Source: a virus
DNA: 64,000 nucleotides
IMG/VR virus record: IMGVR_UViG_3300023174_000071
Location: 1 to 64,000 of that record
Reading direction: 5' to 3' (one strand)
Numbering within the stretch: the stretch's first letter is position 1; each line of letters opens with the position of its first letter. Of the stretch, positions 22,144 through 34,551 are shown piece after piece. Position numbers and translations under genes: made by a program. The notes beneath the pieces were generated by a model. The model worked only from the letters and a program-made list of their open reading frames with translations. It did no database searches and was not told where the DNA came from.

Positions 22144-22875
22144 TCAAATTTCGACAATCAGGTCATTGCGGTAAAGTTTTTTGCTTTCCGATGGATAAGC
22201 ATAAGGGTTACAGATAAACCGAGTGTTATAAATGATTTCATCGGTCGGAGTATGAGTATGTCCATAACACCAAACCTTCAGCGAGGTAAGGTTACGAACA
22301 AATTCTTCTGTGGCTCCAACGAAGAAGCGATTAAGCGGAGAGCCTGCATATTGCGGATGAATAACGCCATCAAAAGGAAGATGATGAGTTACAATAATCT
22401 GAGATTCTTCGCTTTCGAAGAATTCTCGGGCAAGTTTATTTTCATTATAAACTTCTGACTCAAGATTCTTTACATAATAAAAGTCACCCATGTTTCGTTT
22501 ATACAAAACATTTAGAGGGTCATCACCAAACCAAAGCGTTGCGCCCGAAACTTTTACTCCACAAATTTGGACCGAAGAGCGATCCAAATTAATAAGATTT
22601 GGAATTGAAGCGGCAAGTTCTTGACGCAGAGAACGCACTTGAGCAATAGAGCCATGATAGTGTTCATGGTTTCCGGCAACATAAAGAATAGGTGTCGGAG
22701 CAAAATGTTCGCAAAGCAACTTTAAGTAAGTTGGAAAAGTTTTAAAATCTCCAATGTCCCCAGCGATAATTACACCGTCAACATCTAGTTTGGGAAGATT
22801 TTTAATATAGGCTTTTCCTTCTTTCTCGCCAAGGAATTCAAAATGGATATCGCTATAAAGTTGAAACTTTGCCAA
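22144..22875 (-). CDS. calcineurin-like metallophosphoesterase
   Basis: SDIH, AGDI, AGNHE, THH, GHTH motifs. Confidence 0.93.
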   Translation of the reverse strand: MAKFQLYSDIHFEFLGEKEGKAYIKNLPKLDVDGVIIAGDIGDFKTFPTYLKLLCEHFAPTPILYVAGNHEHYHGSIAQVRSLRQELAASIPNLINLDRSSVQICGVKVSGATLWFGDDPLNVLYKRNMGDFYYVKNLESEVYNENKLAREFFESEESQIIVTHHLPFDGVIHPQYAGSPLNRFFVGATEEFVRNLTSLKVWCYGHTHTPTDEIIYNTRFICNPYAYPSESKKLYRNDLIVEI

Positions 22876-23045: not shown

Positions 23046-24056
23046 TTATTCGCCGCCCTTCAAAAGAAATCGGTTGCTGATTGCCTTGAAACTTTGATTT
23101 GTTTCGCAGCTTTTAAACACGAGACCTTCTCGTTCTGTTCGGTTATTTAACACAGAAGAGCCTTCGGCGTCAAGCAGAACAGATGAAATCGTATAGTCGG
23201 AGGAAAACTTTGTTTGCATAGAAATAACGGGAACATGATTGATTTCTAATTGTTTGCAAATCTCTCGTCGCTCATCGGGAAGAAGATAAGAGTGGGAATC
23301 AATATCCCAAATATCATAAAGAAAAAAATCTTGACCAGTTAAACCGTATGGGTTCTTTTGGATACCGGCGCCGATCAACTCTCCTTGAAGGGCGAGATTT
23401 CTTCCTGTGCTGATAATTTTTTGGATTAGATTTTCTCTAATTGCAACCGCCCAAAAAGAATTTGCTTCATCCTTTTTCAGATCAAGGTTTCGGCTGCAAA
23501 CCCCGGAGTTGTCATCATAATGGTAAACCGTCATTGAACTTCCATCCAACTTTTCGGTAACCTCCCAAGAGAGGTTGGCGTCTTTCCAAATGTTAAATTG
23601 TTTTGGAAGATTTTGAATTCGTTCTTGATCTGTTTTATGAATAAAGCTTGGGAAAAGACCTCGGACTATTCCGGAGAGTTGTGCGGGGATTTCCGCTTCC
23701 CATTTAACAATCCCAAGACGTTCGGAAACATCCTCTCCTTCTTCTGCGGAATGATCTCCAAGAATAGAAAGAGGGAGAAGTAAACCTTGAGACAATTCGC
23801 CACGAAGCTTTATCGTCCGCAGCTTTTCCCCTTGAATTCCTTTATATTCTCTTGGTTCCCTTCCTTTAGATAAGAAGGGGGCAAGATGAGTAGGAATCCA
23901 ACTGTCAATCTCGCTCATTACAGCGAGGTCTCCAGCTTTAAACTCTCCCTTTTTGATAACAACCTGCCAGCCGCCGACAATTGCTTTTTCAATAGCGTCA
24001 GCATTTTGAATTGGAAGAATATTATCAATCTTTTTAATTGAAGCAAGCTGCCGCAT
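23046..24056 (-). CDS. RNA ligase, DRB0094 family
   Basis: MRQLASI..IQNADAIE OB-like N-domain, KTDQERIQN, motif I TEKLDGSS, QGELIG, REGLVFK, FKAISN. Confidence 0.93.
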   Translation of the reverse strand: MRQLASIKKIDNILPIQNADAIEKAIVGGWQVVIKKGEFKAGDLAVMSEIDSWIPTHLAPFLSKGREPREYKGIQGEKLRTIKLRGELSQGLLLPLSILGDHSAEEGEDVSERLGIVKWEAEIPAQLSGIVRGLFPSFIHKTDQERIQNLPKQFNIWKDANLSWEVTEKLDGSSMTVYHYDDNSGVCSRNLDLKKDEANSFWAVAIRENLIQKIISTGRNLALQGELIGAGIQKNPYGLTGQDFFLYDIWDIDSHSYLLPDERREICKQLEINHVPVISMQTKFSSDYTISSVLLDAEGSSVLNNRTEREGLVFKSCETNQSFKAISNRFLLKGGE

Positions 24057-24058
24057 GA

Positions 24059-24631
24059 TTAACCTTTGTTTGTAAGAGGATGGCATTTCCAGCAGACAGG
24101 TTCATAACTATCTGCGCCGCCAACAGAGATTTCTTCTTCTGCTTCAGTTTTTCTTAGAGTAACCTGAGCATCATCTCCGCAATTCGTACAGACGGCGGAG
24201 CATTTTTCAATCTTTGTTGCATAAGGCATCATCTTGGAAACTTCTAGAAACGGCTTTAGATTTGAAGAAAGTTCAATCGAAGAAACATAAACGGTAATTC
24301 CGGATTGGAATAGCTGAATGAGAGCGTCGGAGCAGCCTTCAATCATAAAGGCTTCATCTACGGCTACAACTTCTGGTTTTAATTCTTCTGCGATTTGAAG
24401 AATCTGATCGCCGCTTGAAACGGCGAGGGCTTGAAGCGAACCGCCGGAATGGGTTACAATGGAAGTATTTGAGTATCGACCATCAATCGTGGGTTTGAAG
24501 CAAATAACTTTTGAACCACGAATCTGATGCCTTTCGACGGCAGCTAAAAGCCTAGAAGACTTTGAGGAAAACATTGCCCCGACAAATAGAACAAATTCCC
24601 AAATTTTATTTTTCGATTGTTTGACTTTCAT
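24059..24631 (-). CDS. tdk: thymidine kinase
   Basis: GAMFSSKS, FKPTIDGRY, AVDEAF, C-terminal zinc site AVCTNC...VGGADSYEPVCWKC. Confidence 0.93.
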   Translation of the reverse strand: MKVKQSKNKIWEFVLFVGAMFSSKSSRLLAAVERHQIRGSKVICFKPTIDGRYSNTSIVTHSGGSLQALAVSSGDQILQIAEELKPEVVAVDEAFMIEGCSDALIQLFQSGITVYVSSIELSSNLKPFLEVSKMMPYATKIEKCSAVCTNCGDDAQVTLRKTEAEEEISVGGADSYEPVCWKCHPLTNKG

Positions 24632-28533: not shown

Positions 28534-28733
28534 TCAATCCTCACATTTTTCACAATATCAATTTCAAATAAAATGTTAAAATAATTTTTGCTTTTCCCGT
28601 AAGAAAGAATTAAGCCATGAGTTCCTGCTTGGATCAATCCGGCTTTCATATCGTGGAGATGCATTTTTTCTTGACAAAAGAAATGCGTGGTTACCTCTAT
28701 CATATCTCCAACTTCAAATTTTTCCATTAACAC
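28503..28733 (-). CDS. SH3/KOW-like hypothetical protein
   Basis: FEVGDMIEV...GTHGLIL...FNILF. Confidence 0.6.
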   Translation of the reverse strand: MLMEKFEVGDMIEVTTHFFCQEKMHLHDMKAGLIQAGTHGLILSYGKSKNYFNILFEIDIVKNVRIDWIKKLQPSK

Positions 28734-28781
28734 ACTCGCCTCAAAAGCATATCATATCTTTGGTCGAATGCAATAGGCGAA

Positions 28782-29405
28782 TTAAAGTTGTATCATTATG
28801 CTCTTATTCGCTTCGATCAATTTAATTAAAGTCTTTTGAATGCCGGGATTAATTCTCAAAATATGTGGCATCATCGTATGACGGATATAGTTTCTGTCAT
28901 AATCTACATCGCCATTTGATGGATCTTCAACCCAAGTCACACCCTTTCTTTCCGCCCAACTCGCCAAAACTTCTTTCGGCGTCAAAAGAAACGGACGAAT
29001 AAAATTATCCCGCTGAACAGGAATAAGCTTTGGATTACCCCGAAGAGAAGTCATAACCCACCACTCAATCGCATCATTAAGATGGTGGCAAGTAATAATC
29101 TTATCTTCAGAATTTGTAACCGTCTCAAACCACTCGTATCTCTGCTTCCGCCAGAAATCTTCCATGGATTGGTTTTTGTTCGTGGAGCCTTCCAACCTTC
29201 CAACCAAAATCGGAATAGACCATTTTTCACAATAATTTCTAACGCAACTCTCTGCATCCCCAGCGTGAGATGTTGCGTGGTTGAAATGAAGAACCGTTAG
29301 GTTCCGCTTGCCCTGTCGCAAAAAATCAAGACAGGCCATCGAATCTTGACCGCCTGAGACTGCGACGGATACCTTGAGAGGTATTTTGCATGATAATTTA
29401 ATCAT
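28782..29405 (-). CDS. tilS: tRNA(Ile)-lysidine synthetase, catalytic domain only
   Basis: PP-loop AVSGGQDS, HFNH, RKQRY, CHHLNDAIE, IRPFL, WVEDPSN, RNYIRH; 207 aa, lacks the C-terminal domains. Confidence 0.92.
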   Translation of the reverse strand: MIKLSCKIPLKVSVAVSGGQDSMACLDFLRQGKRNLTVLHFNHATSHAGDAESCVRNYCEKWSIPILVGRLEGSTNKNQSMEDFWRKQRYEWFETVTNSEDKIITCHHLNDAIEWWVMTSLRGNPKLIPVQRDNFIRPFLLTPKEVLASWAERKGVTWVEDPSNGDVDYDRNYIRHTMMPHILRINPGIQKTLIKLIEANKSIMIQL

Positions 29406-29480
29406 GATTTAAAATAACCTAACCGTTGTTTTCGCGAAGTGGGGTCTTTGAAAATGTAGCTTTAAACTGAGAAAAAAGCG

Positions 29481-29564
29481 TAGGCGCGGCGAGAGTTGAA
29501 CTCGCATGTCAAACCGATTACTCCTTTAACGACTCTGTGTATGAGGCAGGGGAGATACGCGCCT
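29481..29564 (-). tRNA. non-canonical tRNA-like gene, CAU anticodon (putative tRNA-Ile2)
   Basis: Perfect acceptor AGGCGCG/CGCGCCT+A and T-arm GCGAG-TTCAACT-CTCGC; loop CTCATAC; no D-hairpin 5' of the anticodon arm; D-loop-like TAATCGG lies 3' of it. Confidence 0.75.
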
Positions 29565-30528
29565 ATAAGCTTGATTTTCGAAGAAACTTCAAGAGTTTCT
29601 CAAACTGTTCTTCAACAAATTTCTTATCGAATTTGCCGTCATCATCGATGACATATTCATTGTACCCAGCTGCGCGAATCTTGTCAACCTTTATTTTGTC
29701 TCTTGTTTGAACTTGTTTAACAGAATGTTTTTTTGTAATTTTTCTTCGGTGCCAAGGTCCATTCCACATTACGGCTATTTTTAAGTCCGGAATGATAACA
29801 TCGGCGTCCCATCCGTCAAACATGGGCTCGTTACAAAGAACGTTTGCAAATTTATCCGTACAAAGTTGAGCAAAGTATATTTCGTTTTTGCTTCTTCGAG
29901 TTTCGCGTTGTAACTGAGATGAGGCGATACCTGCTAACCTTGCCTTTCTCATATTCTCTTCATATTGTGGATTTTTTTCATTAAATTTATATTTTGTTGC
30001 ACAACTAATATCGCAGAATTTTTTATTTTTCCTTTTATATGAAACAGTAAATTTTTCATTGCAGTGAAGGCATTCTTTTGTTGTATCTTCATAAATATGA
30101 GAAAATTTCTTTTTAACCGTATCGCTCGTCTTCTTACTAATCGCTTCTCTATTTAATGCTGTAGCGGAACTTCTTGCACATTTTTGAGAGCAGAATCTTC
30201 CGGTTCCATAAACTTCTTTAATTTTTTCATTACATCTTTCGCATTTGTTTGAAAAGATTGATTTCTTTTTATTTTCCGCTCTTTCTTCTCCTAGAATATG
30301 TAAGCGGAGAGTGCTTTTTGCAAACATTTGATTGCAATTTGGACATGCAACCAAAGTTCGTGAAGCTATAGCTGCTGCAGCACGGGCTCTTTCGCCTTTT
30401 TCTTTTCCTTCAGCGGTATGCTTCGCTTTCCAATGCAGCAATATATTTTTTGTAGATTTCTTTTCTCCGCATTCCAAACAAACGGCTTGTCCATCTTCAT
30501 CAATTTTTGCGATATCTTCTAGCTTCAT
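29563..30528 (-). CDS. Zn-finger-rich putative homing endonuclease with Vsr/DUF559-like nuclease domain
   Basis: Multiple CxxC and FCSxxC motifs; RSKNEIYF...WDADVIIPDLKIAVMWNGPWH...RDKIK; stop codon overlaps the 5' end of the tRNA-like gene. Confidence 0.75.
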   Translation of the reverse strand: MKLEDIAKIDEDGQAVCLECGEKKSTKNILLHWKAKHTAEGKEKGERARAAAAIASRTLVACPNCNQMFAKSTLRLHILGEERAENKKKSIFSNKCERCNEKIKEVYGTGRFCSQKCARSSATALNREAISKKTSDTVKKKFSHIYEDTTKECLHCNEKFTVSYKRKNKKFCDISCATKYKFNEKNPQYEENMRKARLAGIASSQLQRETRRSKNEIYFAQLCTDKFANVLCNEPMFDGWDADVIIPDLKIAVMWNGPWHRRKITKKHSVKQVQTRDKIKVDKIRAAGYNEYVIDDDGKFDKKFVEEQFEKLLKFLRKSSL

Positions 30529-31085: not shown

Positions 31086-32102
31086 TTGAATCAAATGTCG
31101 AGAAAGTTTGTTTTGAAAAGTTTGTTTAAAAAAGCGTCCGGGCAAAATCCAACTCAAGAAGTTCATATTTTTGATTTTGATTCTTGTCTTTTCCGTTCGC
31201 CTTATCCTCCGGCAGATTGGAAGGGTGGTTGGTGGGGAAGTTTAATTTCTCTGGATGAGCCATGTGTTCCTGCTGAGCCGGATTCTTCTTGGTGGAATTC
31301 GGAAGTTGTTTCTCAAGCTAAGGCGTCCATTCAAAATCCGGATGTTTACACGATGCTTATGACAGGTCGGCAGGATCATATTTTCCGATATCGAATTGTT
31401 GATCTTCTAAATCAAGCCGGTTTGAATTTTGATTTTATTCGCCTAAGCGATTCGGATAACACTCGAGATTTCAAATTTTCAAATATGAAAAATAAGATCT
31501 TTGAGTTTCTTAGAAAGGACAGCCTATCTATCGGAAAGATTAAGATTTGGGACGATAACAAATCGTATCTTAACTATTATAAAAAAGCTTTAGAGGAATT
31601 GTTTCAAAAAATTCCTGACCCAACAAAGAGGCCGATTGTTGAGGTTTTCCATGTTGTAGCGAAATCGAAGCCGGCCCTATCTTCGCAACCTGAAGGCGAA
31701 CATAAAATTAAAAAGAATGGTTACCTTGGTTTGTTTTTGGATTCTCAATCTAAGGCGGATTTGATTTATCATTTTCCGCAAGAATATGAAAACCCTTATG
31801 GTGAGCATGTCACTTTGCTTTTCAAACCATCAGAAGCTGTTAAATCTATTGTTATAGATTCTGGGTTGATTGGAAAAGAATATCCAATTCAGATTGTTGG
31901 TTATGCGGCGAGAGATGGTGTTCAGGCAGTTGCTGTGGAAGTGAAAGGCTTGGAAGATTTTCTAATTGAAACAGATCGAATTCTTCATATCACCATATCT
32001 ACATCGAATGACCGCAAACCTGTGGATAGCAACAAGCTATTGATGGAAGGCTTTGAAAAAATTCAAGGTCCGCAGATTCGGGGCATTTTGTTATTCAGGT
32101 AA
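31086..32102 (+). CDS. RNA end-healing enzyme: HAD phosphatase (Swiss Army Knife RNA-repair type) + 2H phosphoesterase
   Basis: HIFDFDSCLFRSP, MTGR, IWDD HAD motifs; HVTL...HITIS 2H motifs; leader SRKFVLKSLFKKAS. Confidence 0.82.
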   Translation: MNQMSRKFVLKSLFKKASGQNPTQEVHIFDFDSCLFRSPYPPADWKGGWWGSLISLDEPCVPAEPDSSWWNSEVVSQAKASIQNPDVYTMLMTGRQDHIFRYRIVDLLNQAGLNFDFIRLSDSDNTRDFKFSNMKNKIFEFLRKDSLSIGKIKIWDDNKSYLNYYKKALEELFQKIPDPTKRPIVEVFHVVAKSKPALSSQPEGEHKIKKNGYLGLFLDSQSKADLIYHFPQEYENPYGEHVTLLFKPSEAVKSIVIDSGLIGKEYPIQIVGYAARDGVQAVAVEVKGLEDFLIETDRILHITISTSNDRKPVDSNKLLMEGFEKIQGPQIRGILLFR

Positions 32103-32154
32103 TTATTTTCCAAATATTGTCGTACAATCGTTTATAAGTTTGGAAAAGAACATC

Positions 32155-34551
32155 ATGAATTCTGGTTTAAGTGTAGCTTCTCGAAGAATTATTTTAAAAA
32201 CATTACAAAAATATGCTCAGCAATATTGGGGCAACTCTGGTGCTGGCATCTTATTTATTTGTAGCGAAGATAACACCTGTCTTTTAGCCTTAAGGTCTTC
32301 TGGCGTTAATGAGCCCGGAACTTGGGGAGTTCCGGGTGGGGCTATAGAGAAAGGTGAATCACCAGAAATTGGCGCAGAAAGAGAGGTTAAAGAAGAGTTT
32401 GGTTCATTACCGTCTTCATTTGAAGAGGTAACCAGAACTAAATTTAAATCCGATAATGATTTTGAATATACAACTTTTATTTATGATATTTCAAAAGATG
32501 AAAAAAGAAATTGGTCAAAAAGGATTAAATTAAATTGGGAGAATGATCAATTTAAATGGTTTGATTTTTCAACCTTGCCATCAAATTTACACTTTGGCGT
32601 TCAAAAAGTAAAGCAGCTTTTAGTGGAACAGTCCAACTTGTTTTTATTTCCCGAACGAAAAAACAATTGGGATCATTATCGGAATATATTGTCCAAGCTA
32701 AAAACTTCCGTTAAAAAAGAAAATCAGCAGATTTTTAATTCTTTAATTTCTGAATTAGAAAACCCTCCCCAAACCGAAGGGAGAGAGCAGTTAGTTAACT
32801 ATTCGAAATTAATTTCTGATAAAATGTTAGACTTATCTAAGTCATTATCTTCAGCAGGCGAAGAAGATATTGCTAAAAAAATTGAAGTTGCAGCAAACTC
32901 AATCGTTAAAGAACTTGATCGTGATATGGTGGAAAGCGAACTTGTAAGTAAAGAGCAGGCGACAGATAAATTTCTTTATCATGGAACAAATTTTGGAGAT
33001 GTTCTTTCGCTATTAACAACCAAAACATTCCAGCCTACTGGAACATACAAGAAGGTATCGCTAACAACTAGTTTTGATTTGGCTTTAAAATTTGGCGATA
33101 CAGTTTTAGCTTTTGATGCTGATAAGCTAAAAGCGAAAGGTGCAAGAAAGATGCAATACGGAACAACGGATGAGGTTGCAAAAGCTAATTCTGAAGGCCG
33201 AGATGAAGATTCATTAGATCATCCCGAAGGCCCTATTATTCTAGATATATACAAATATGAGCAAGAGTGGTCTATTCGAACTCCATTTTCATTTGATCTA
33301 CAAGACCTTGATAGAATTTATTTCGTCTGTGATCCTAATCGTAAATATGGAAAAGAATCAAATACTTATGATGAAGCCATGGACCTTGTTCACTCGATTG
33401 TTGGAGACGAAGTCCCTCTTGTCTGTTCGAGCATAAAAGCAACAGCGCCATTTTATCCAGATCAATCTTCTAGAGTTTCTTCTGGTATCATTGGTTTGAA
33501 ATCATTTTTATTTACAAATATTCTCCGTGCATGTTCTGACTTAAAAGATATAAGACTTGAATATTTTAAAATAATGGAAAGACACGGTATACCAAACGAG
33601 TATATCAAATATGACCGTCTATACTCCTATTTAAATAATCTTATAAGTTTATTTAATGAAATGGAGACCGTTAAGAATGACCTTAATTTTTCATATGTAA
33701 ATAAAGATAGAGGCAAAGCTTCGGTCATTTTGAGATTAGATTCTTTATTATCAAGAATTCTTGGCTCAAACGAAATGAGTGAAGGTGAATCTTCACAAAA
33801 TAGTTTAACGGGGATTTCGGAGTTTACATATAGAGAATACTCTTATAGTGATTATTCGGCCTCGGCGCAGAAAGAAATAGAAGCTTTCGTAGAAAATCTA
33901 AATGAATATATTAAAGCTTTAATTTCAGAGCTAAAGAACAAGGTAAGTTTTTTTAAGCAAACTTCGAGTGAAGCAATAAAATTTTCAGATAAAGAATCTC
34001 TATATCCTTATATTTTTAATGATATATCTCTTCCGCCGTTTCTTAAGAGTAAGTTGTACGCCAAGAGTTCATCTTTATTTTCAGAAATATATAATGATTA
34101 TTTGAATGGCAATCTTTCTAATTATGGCGATGATTATAGAATCAAAAATAGACTGGAATCATTAGCAGAAAAAGCTCCGCCTGATGCTATCCCAACAGAG
34201 CTTCTAAAAGACAGACCAATAATTTTAATTGATCATATAAATCCAGATCTTTTTTCTGATCAGCAAATTAAAGATGCGCTATCAAGTCAAGATAACTATA
34301 ATGCTGATTGGATATTTAACTACAGATACGGCTTTGACAAAACAAAATTTCCGGCGCTCGATGATGCAAAAAAATACTTTGAAGAATGTGAACAGTCATA
34401 TCCCGGTTGCGCAAAAGATACCTTGAAATCTATAAAGGATATAAAATCAAAAGATTTTTACATGAGAGTGTTTAAAGTTTTGGGGCGTCAAGACTTAATT
34501 AATGATATAACAGATTTGATTGAGTTTTTGGAACAGCTATCTGCGAATTAA
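32155..34551 (+). CDS. polyvalent protein: NUDIX hydrolase + ADP-ribosyltransferase-like domain + helical C-terminus
   Basis: Nudix box GGAIEKGESPEIGAEREVKEEFG; ART-like FLYHGT...VSLTTS...YEQEW; ATG at 32155 gives leader ASRRIILKTLQKYAQ. Confidence 0.8.
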   Translation: MNSGLSVASRRIILKTLQKYAQQYWGNSGAGILFICSEDNTCLLALRSSGVNEPGTWGVPGGAIEKGESPEIGAEREVKEEFGSLPSSFEEVTRTKFKSDNDFEYTTFIYDISKDEKRNWSKRIKLNWENDQFKWFDFSTLPSNLHFGVQKVKQLLVEQSNLFLFPERKNNWDHYRNILSKLKTSVKKENQQIFNSLISELENPPQTEGREQLVNYSKLISDKMLDLSKSLSSAGEEDIAKKIEVAANSIVKELDRDMVESELVSKEQATDKFLYHGTNFGDVLSLLTTKTFQPTGTYKKVSLTTSFDLALKFGDTVLAFDADKLKAKGARKMQYGTTDEVAKANSEGRDEDSLDHPEGPIILDIYKYEQEWSIRTPFSFDLQDLDRIYFVCDPNRKYGKESNTYDEAMDLVHSIVGDEVPLVCSSIKATAPFYPDQSSRVSSGIIGLKSFLFTNILRACSDLKDIRLEYFKIMERHGIPNEYIKYDRLYSYLNNLISLFNEMETVKNDLNFSYVNKDRGKASVILRLDSLLSRILGSNEMSEGESSQNSLTGISEFTYREYSYSDYSASAQKEIEAFVENLNEYIKALISELKNKVSFFKQTSSEAIKFSDKESLYPYIFNDISLPPFLKSKLYAKSSSLFSEIYNDYLNGNLSNYGDDYRIKNRLESLAEKAPPDAIPTELLKDRPIILIDHINPDLFSDQQIKDALSSQDNYNADWIFNYRYGFDKTKFPALDDAKKYFEECEQSYPGCAKDTLKSIKDIKSKDFYMRVFKVLGRQDLINDITDLIEFLEQLSAN

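Follow-up and report, generated by a model that had tools for sequence, protein, structure and literature searches.

Can a gene that lacks the D hairpin of the cloverleaf encode a working transfer RNA (tRNA), and does the TilS gene beside it supply the enzyme that modifies it? The question is raised by an element with the anticodon CAU on the minus strand of a 64,000-nucleotide (nt) stretch of viral DNA (the window), which is the first half of the 128,325-base IMG/VR virus record IMGVR_UViG_3300023174_000071. The element (29481..29564) is 84 nt in length including its discriminator A, has no encoded CCA, and ends at 29481, leaving 75 nt to the ATG (29405) of a gene on the same strand for a small TilS protein (mini-TilS). 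We consider it probable that the element is a functional tRNA-Ile2 of a rewired, non-cloverleaf type and that it is a substrate of the neighbouring mini-TilS. The source of the record is probably a jumbo phage, since a record of this length is rated only 38% complete by CheckV.

The 84 nt are exactly as written in the original prediction, which was made from the window alone and described the acceptor stem and T arm as perfect. The 5' strand of the acceptor stem (nt 1-7, 29558..29564, minus strand, as for all parts of the element) forms 7/7 Watson-Crick pairs with nt 77-83 (29482-29488), including C4-G69; U8 and A9 follow it, and the discriminator is A84. The T arm (nt 60-76, 29489..29505) has a 5-base-pair (bp) stem (nt 60-64/72-76), all Watson-Crick, and a UUCAACU loop that fits the G53-T54-Psi55-C56-R57-A58...C61 consensus. 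No D hairpin separates U8-A9 from the anticodon arm: nt 10-14 lead directly into the anticodon hairpin (nt 15-32, 29533..29550; delimited from the sequence and from alignment A3, described below), which has a CUCAUAC loop with the anticodon at nt 22-24 (29541-29543). With A31 bulged, the hairpin pairs are C15-G32, C16-G30, U17-A29 and G18-C28, so that the three Watson-Crick pairs counted earlier become four, while a C19.A27 mismatch still closes the loop. These four pairs stack under a 4-bp helix between CUCC (strand A, nt 11-14, 29551..29554), 5' of the anticodon arm, and the complementary GGAG (strand B, nt 41-44, 29521..29524), 3' of it. An 8-nt bulge (nt 33-40, 29525..29532) precedes strand B; by comparison with A3, it consists of a lineage-specific 5-nt insertion and a family-invariant AAA. 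Strand B is followed by a relocated, D-loop-like single strand (nt 45-59, 29506..29520), in which the D-loop letters occupy nt 45-53. Its family-like segments are U45-A46-A47 and G50-G51-U52, it has a 2-nt insertion (UG, nt 54-55), and it ends in a Y48-like U59 that could pair with A47.

Neither ARAGORN nor Rfam calls the element, although four other, ordinary tRNAs are called in the window. The element falls below the RF00005 gathering threshold (29 bits): no Rfam tRNA match to it was obtained at the gathering score, or at E ≤ 10 over 29300-29750. Its folding energy is likewise unremarkable (z = -1.77, 14 of 200 shuffles being equally stable). The family-like fold described above has an energy of -20.5 kcal/mol, compared with -24.1 kcal/mol for the minimum free energy (MFE) fold; the corresponding averages for 95 family members are -19.4 and -21.7 kcal/mol. 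The MFE fold of the element contains an alternative 6-bp pairing (35-40/52-57) that is also built from the two insertions. The argument that the element is more than a chance arrangement comes from comparison with relatives, in the form of a covariance model match, and not from folding energy.

The search for relatives was seeded with pattern scans of IMG/VR. A loose first pattern returned 85 stretches, nearly all of which represent one protein-coding family; the only look-alikes of the element were at loci L020 and L036, and four stretches were canonical Met tRNAs. The same layout was then found in further pattern scans of IMG/VR, at 21 of 23, at least 120, and 35 of 35 loci. In the set of loci used for comparison, 134 copies reduce to 99 distinct sequences, the anticodons of which are all of isoleucine type (UAU in 80, GAU in 17 and CAU in 2). 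Of the distinct sequences, 87 have a fully paired acceptor stem and the other 12 have 6/7 pairs there; the discriminator is A in 93. From the 5' end, the layout consists of the acceptor stem, U-A-U, a 3-nt strand A, and a 6-bp anticodon stem that has a single bulged U and encloses a 7-nt loop; this is followed by A-A-A, a 3-nt strand B (the complement of strand A), U-A-R..G-G-U..C-A-Y, the T arm, the second acceptor strand and the discriminator. The anticodon is NAU throughout, with U33 and A37 in the loop, and family members are located in tRNA arrays with normal spacing.

Covariation in the family was assessed using a MAFFT alignment (A3) of 95 viral sequences, taken from the 99 distinct ones by leaving out L122, L127, L152, L196 and L198, as their automatically assigned 3' ends gave odd lengths, and adding L020; the window was excluded. 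Standard pairs occupy 98.9% of cells, versus 69.4% in shuffles, and the covariation score is 0.757 versus 0.183 in shuffles, a value reached by 0 of 500. When the 3' partners were slid by 1-3 columns, pairing was only 38-45%. For the helix formed by strands A and B (columns 11-13/37-39), pairing reaches 99.6% of cells, and each of the three pairs varies on both sides, as do all 7 pairs of the acceptor stem. Columns 42 (directly behind U-A) and 53 (the final one ahead of the T stem) hold A-U in 70 sequences and G-C in 23, with 2 exceptions, a pattern that we take to be that of the R15-Y48 Levitt pair of ordinary tRNAs. Neither the A/B-helix columns nor the Levitt-like columns were fixed by the selecting pattern. 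Invariant positions include U40, A41, G46, G47, U48 and A52 in the D-loop-like strand, the C14-G33 and U15-A32 pairs, the bulged U31, and the AAA bulge after the anticodon arm (95 of 95). As judged from these columns, the conserved family fold is nested and has no pseudoknot. Two elements of the original prediction are thereby borne out: the D-loop-like strand lies at the position of the variable region in place of a D hairpin, and the helix of nt 11-14 with nt 41-44, which encloses the anticodon arm, has a covarying equivalent in the 95 relatives.

Members of this family are barely detected by standard tools. Among nine other rewired copies in eight loci, Rfam detects four, at 30.8-35.2 bits, and ARAGORN misses the rewired copies of L020 and L036. 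The family also occurs in cultured phages: the Streptomyces phage Daubenski (L237, MN444876.1) has a rewired tRNA-Ile(GAU) at approximately 1709-1785 of the locus, between genes 104 and 105, whose products are a nucleotidyltransferase and an FtsK-like translocase. This copy is unannotated, while the other tRNAs of the record are annotated, and the stretch that contains it is common to 49 Streptomyces phage records.

Several side observations concern the limits of the layout. Weaker matches (28-40 bits) to model R1, a covariance model built from the 95 viral sequences of A3 (window excluded), resemble further rewired layouts: L275 1610-1698 and 4577-4657; L261 4368-4457, 4872-4949 and 5086-5165; L252 2702-2781; L248 4235-4314; and L255 35-113. 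Some carry the Arg anticodons UCU, UCG, ACG and CCU; in others, which are Ile copies, an additional hairpin separates the D-loop-like strand from the T arm. The scaffold therefore appears to be neither restricted to isoleucine nor intolerant of insertions. The four canonical Met tRNAs among the first-pattern stretches have a long variable region. At L035, L057, L069 and L085, a canonical tRNA-Met(CAU) with a normal D arm has an 18-nt variable region with a D-loop-like AAAUCGGUU motif.

Does the element in the window belong to this family? It aligns to all 77 positions of model R1 with a score of 53.2 bits (E 1.8e-11). Its acceptor stem, T arm, A/B helix and nearly all of the family-invariant nucleotides are intact, and the changes that it does carry are clustered rather than scattered. 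The A/B helix is 4 bp in the window copy versus 3 bp in the family and the long hairpin has 8 Watson-Crick pairs versus 9; the window copy pairs C14-G41, and the R1 alignment marks non-standard pairs in the anticodon-stem region. The two insertions (nt 33-37 and 54-55) are absent from 95 of 95 aligned relatives. GUC (nt 32-34) is complementary to GAC (nt 55-57), and this pairing had been proposed to cross the 11-14/41-44 helix in a pseudoknotted core; as it draws on the lineage-specific insertions, and the conserved fold is nested, the pseudoknot does not hold as a feature of the family.

Close relatives of the window copy are few. The R1 scan of the 128-kilobase (kb) record found no second rewired tRNA, a blastn search with 28700-29700 found no match among cultured phages, and an exact IMG/VR search with the 25 nt of the T arm and acceptor strand found none either. 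A search for additional copies of the window type, with its UG insertion, gave 2 viral and 48 genome-collection pattern matches; at the pattern site, R1 matched none of them. Parts of the element also occur in contigs of two runs from other studies, with 0 differences in X5 and 1 in X6; an X6 contig (record 14) matches tRNA nt 2-43 only, with 3 differences and unlike flanks, and nothing is drawn from this match. The only relative of the window type found is L243, a contig that begins inside the gene such that the last 44 nt are visible. It keeps 39 of these 44 nt, including the UG insertion, with an identical T loop and acceptor strand, and two compensatory pair changes in the T stem account for 4 of the 5 differences. 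L243 encodes CCA, and its TilS is 67% identical to that of the window. This conservation, with its compensatory changes, is the best evidence that the window type is under selection.

The protein encoded beside the element (28782..29405, minus strand) is 207 amino acids (aa) in length and, by domain match, consists solely of the PP-loop (SGGQDS) catalytic domain of TilS. It matches PF01171 at 2.7e-39 and TIGR02432 (lysidine_TilS_N) at 129.6 bits (cut-off 93.6), versus 84.9 bits for the full-length TilS model NF007942 (cut-off 606). Alignments to solved TilS structures extend over the N-terminal domains of 1wy5, 1ni5 and 3a2k only (residues 26-229 of 317 in 1wy5 and 15-200 of 433 in 1ni5), and the C-terminal tRNA-binding domains (CTD1 and CTD2) are absent, in agreement with the earlier reading of this protein. 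There are 251 relatives at E ≤ 1e-10; those among the 120 matches listed are 178-221 aa long, and the closest terminate at the same point as the window protein, which can for these reasons be assigned to a family of one-domain TilS proteins. The closest are P0002 (86% identical) and P0003-P0006 (72%).

TilS genes of this kind recur near CAU tRNAs. In a sample of 14 related TilS records (L002 and L242 being one contig), a CAU tRNA lies within 1.5 kb of TilS in five: L002=L242, L243, L244, L245 and L246. It is a canonical CAU tRNA 420-540 nt upstream of TilS in L002, L244 and L245, a canonical CAU tRNA 15 nt downstream in L246, and a rewired CAU tRNA 1.4 kb upstream in L243. CAU was the only tRNA anticodon called in the 14 records. 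In the uncultured phage LR756502 (642 kb), rewired copies of UAU, GAU and Arg type lie approximately 5 kb from TilS, with no CAU copy found there.

Part of the sequence of the element points to isoleucine. In PMC9976931, A73 and C4-G69 are listed as bacterial Ile identity elements, as are A35, U36, A37 and A38, with U4-A69 and A5-U68 listed for Met. The window copy has A73 and C4-G69, as stated in the original prediction, together with G5-C68, A35, U36 and A37; position 38 is C, and the D-arm elements are not mappable with certainty. Among the 28 distinct other rewired CAU sequences, A73 is present in all and C4-G69 in 25, versus C4-G69 in 47 of 76 UAU and 4 of 16 GAU copies. Several of the arrays with rewired CAU copies also contain a canonical tRNA-Met(CAU) and a tRNA-Ile(GAU). 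On the side of codon demand, ATA had been called frequent. In 92 long open reading frames (ORFs) it accounts for 258 codons, or 12% of Ile codons and 8.7 per 1000, a demand that is real and moderate but not striking.

If the element is expressed and folds like its family, the strand after U8-A9-U10 would pair with the strand 3' of the anticodon arm to give one long bulged hairpin. The D-stem-like helix, stacked on the anticodon stem, would then replace the usual stack of D stem and anticodon stem, and the D-loop sequence (A14, R15, G18 and G19) would lead as a single strand into the T arm. From there, the relocated D loop could keep the U8-A14, R15-Y48 and G18G19/T-loop contacts of an L-shaped tRNA. 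The one-domain TilS most likely converts C34 to lysidine, which would lead to charging by isoleucyl-tRNA synthetase and to the reading of AUA.

A number of observations weigh against a functional tRNA-Ile2 paired with its own enzyme. The window copy is an outlier in the family, at 53 bits versus 76.8-91.5 for the other 35 full-length CAU copies. C15-G32 replaces the invariant U15-A32 and a bulged A31 the bulged U, the C.A mismatch closes the anticodon loop, and there are the two insertions, of 5 nt before AAA and of UG in the D-loop-like strand. A38, which PMC9976931 lists as an Ile determinant, is C38 here, versus A38 in 28 of 28 other rewired CAU copies. Because no full-length close relative of the window copy was found, its anticodon arm is without comparative support. 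In relatives of runs X2 and X4, 29368-29583 is replaced by 268 other letters. With respect to pairing, PF01171 (PP-loop/TilS) was found in none of 35 IMG/VR records with another rewired CAU tRNA, and in none of the 10 of those records that are at least 90% complete, which indicates that the rewired type needs no enzyme of its own; it is a canonical CAU tRNA that accompanies the closer TilS relatives. The proposed co-occurrence of tRNA and tilS thus stands for mini-TilS and CAU tRNAs (the five of 14 records above) and fails as a general rule for rewired CAU tRNAs. Since the linkage recurs beside TilS and is missing from the 35 records, the pairing of enzyme and tRNA is, on the genomes compared, a trait of mini-TilS phages and not of the rewired scaffold.

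The main rival reading is a decaying pseudogene, left for example by the arrival of the neighbouring homing endonuclease, in which case TilS would serve the tRNA-Ile2 of the host or a phage tRNA in the unsequenced remainder of the genome. The lowest R1 score among CAU copies, the mismatch at the loop, the loss of the U-A pair and bulged U, C38, the insertions, the segment replaced in related strains and the low completeness of the record all fit with decay. We nevertheless regard it as unlikely: the changes are clustered, leaving intact nearly all invariant nucleotides as well as the A/B helix, the T arm and the acceptor stem, the family-like fold is as stable as in typical members, and L243 keeps the 3' part and its insertion, with compensatory T-stem changes, even though its TilS is only 67% identical. 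The insertions may instead have a structural role. They could add a third helix (35-40/52-57 or 32-34/55-57) that crosses 11-14/41-44, giving a pseudoknotted core in which the relocated D loop is closed into a hairpin, having co-evolved with a TilS that reads the anticodon arm; such a self-contained, host-independent pair for AUA might escape host enzymes that cut or degrade tRNA. This extension of the functional reading, which concerns the window lineage, is rather improbable.

It is also conceivable, and in our view quite improbable, that the element is an elongator methionine tRNA (CAU) on the rewired scaffold, next to TilS by coincidence. An unmodified CAU reads AUG, and the anticodon is the main feature used by methionyl-tRNA synthetase (PMC9976931). 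The canonical CAU tRNAs next to related TilS genes are given as Met by ARAGORN, and the 128-kb record has no other Met tRNA (its other tRNAs read AGA, ACA, AAY and UCC). However, the element has C4-G69 and G5-C68 instead of the Met-type U4-A69 and A5-U68 of that source, all other anticodons with the exact layout in our scans are isoleucine ones, and the tRNAs found beside mini-TilS genes are exclusively CAU tRNAs. The initiator form is further opposed by the anticodon stem, which has no run of three G-C pairs above the loop. Three G-C pairs at this position mark initiator tRNAs. The least probable of the readings considered, to which we give very little weight, is a tRNA-like regulatory or processing element, either the 3' end of an endonuclease messenger RNA (mRNA) or a substrate mimic in the TilS leader that controls TilS synthesis. 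The element lies between two co-oriented genes and overlaps the upstream stop codon, a six-T run starts four bases beyond its discriminator, and no CCA is encoded; yet the terminator scan reported nothing at the tRNA position, family members sit in normally spaced tRNA arrays, their anticodon is confined to NAU with U33 and A37, and in L243 CCA is encoded and another gene lies between the tRNA and TilS. Other candidates were rejected: a tmRNA-like (transfer-messenger RNA-like) domain, since G3-U70 and an mRNA part are both lacking; a tRNA that is split or contains an intron, as both acceptor strands are inside the 84 nt; and an att-site remnant, as both halves are present.

Compared with known systems, the putative tRNA-Ile2 of the window has the CAU, U33, A37, A73, C4-G69, 7-bp acceptor stem and consensus T arm of canonical tRNA-Ile2(CAU), and its D-loop letters are identical to those of the canonical CAU tRNA of L002, which accompanies the closest viral TilS relative. 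It differs from canonical tRNA-Ile2 in that the partner strands of the D stem flank the anticodon arm and the D loop comes after them, and in having C38 and not A38. With the E. coli-type tRNA-Ile2/TilS system (1ni5, 1wy5 and 3a2k), the window shares the TilS catalytic domain, here encoded next door; unlike E. coli-type TilS, its enzyme lacks CTD1 and CTD2. The CTD domains of type I TilS read the acceptor stem. Recognition by a mini-TilS without these domains would therefore rest on the anticodon arm.

The absence of a D hairpin between the acceptor and anticodon stems is shared with the D-armless tRNA-Ser(AGY) of animal mitochondria and with the engineered E. coli 'mini HisT', as described in PMC11551756. 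According to that source, mini HisT demonstrates that bacterial EF-Tu, the ribosome and a synthetase can accept a D-armless tRNA. Unlike the Y-shaped tRNA-Ser(AGY) and mini HisT, which have lost the D loop and its contact with the T loop (PMC11551756), the window family keeps the D-loop letters, G18-G19 and the R15-Y48 covariation, and so an L shape is likelier than a Y shape for the rewired family. TilS proteins of the Pseudomonas jumbo phages PA5oct and MIJ3 are reported in PMC6892783. These one-domain proteins (approximately 203 aa), the nearest cultured examples, are 40% identical to the window TilS over 90% of the query; in contrast to the window, their genes have neither an annotated nor a called tRNA within 3 kb, and no R1 match was found in the whole PA5oct record. 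A phage tRNA of the rewired layout did not turn up in full-text searches of the literature.

Upstream of the element, a homing-endonuclease-like ORF of 321 aa (29563..30528, minus strand; phrog_1271 HNH endonuclease, 8.6e-13, with zinc-finger matches) has a stop codon that overlaps tRNA nt 1-2. The replacement by 268 letters in runs X2 and X4 may be accounted for by the presence of an endonuclease-like ORF beside a CAU tRNA. Similar ORFs adjoin rewired or canonical CAU tRNAs in several unrelated phages (L020, L036 and L097). In L020 (6319-7002, minus strand) and L036 (621-1304, plus strand), the ORF enters the tRNA by approximately 30 nt and stops in or beside the anticodon loop; in L097 a canonical CAU tRNA follows the endonuclease gene, and L096 has none. 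L243 also has a similar endonuclease-like ORF, judged by eye from its translation, between its tRNA and TilS. Use of relatives of the L020/L036 endonuclease as an anchor yielded no new rewired copy. Approximately 95 nt upstream of the tRNA there is a sigma-70-like promoter match (TTGACA, 17 nt, TACAAT; 29659..29687, minus strand), which is a consensus match only; the region has 7 such sites versus 5.0 expected.

RNA-repair-type genes are found around the tRNA genes of the window (22144-22875 and 23046-24086, minus strand; 31086-32102, plus strand). They include a metallophosphoesterase and an RNA ligase (PF09414, 1.8e-32; PHA02142 OB-fold domain) just upstream of an Arg/Thr/Asn tRNA cluster, and, near the rewired tRNA, a gene whose product contains a HAD 'Swiss Army Knife RNA repair' domain (PF10307, 5.9e-20). 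We treat the nearby RNA ligase and phosphoesterase genes as context only for the evasion of anticodon nucleases and the decoy role suggested in the original prediction, neither of which is supported. In an 832-aa protein (32053-34551, plus strand), a NUDIX domain (PF00293, 2.1e-14) lies at the N terminus, and the long C-terminal remainder has no Pfam match.

Taken as a family, these genes represent a natural tRNA type, carried by hundreds of phage contigs and by Streptomyces phages in culture, in which the order of strands is not that of the cloverleaf and the nucleotides of the L shape are kept. Because standard tRNA finders miss or barely detect the family, phage tRNA inventories, and the codon-usage analyses that go with them, are incomplete. 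The window offers a directly testable case, a CAU member adjoining a one-domain TilS. This two-part system bears on how a non-cloverleaf tRNA may be modified, charged and used, on how a TilS without acceptor-binding domains would recognize its substrate, and on the orthogonality of such a pair to the systems of the host.

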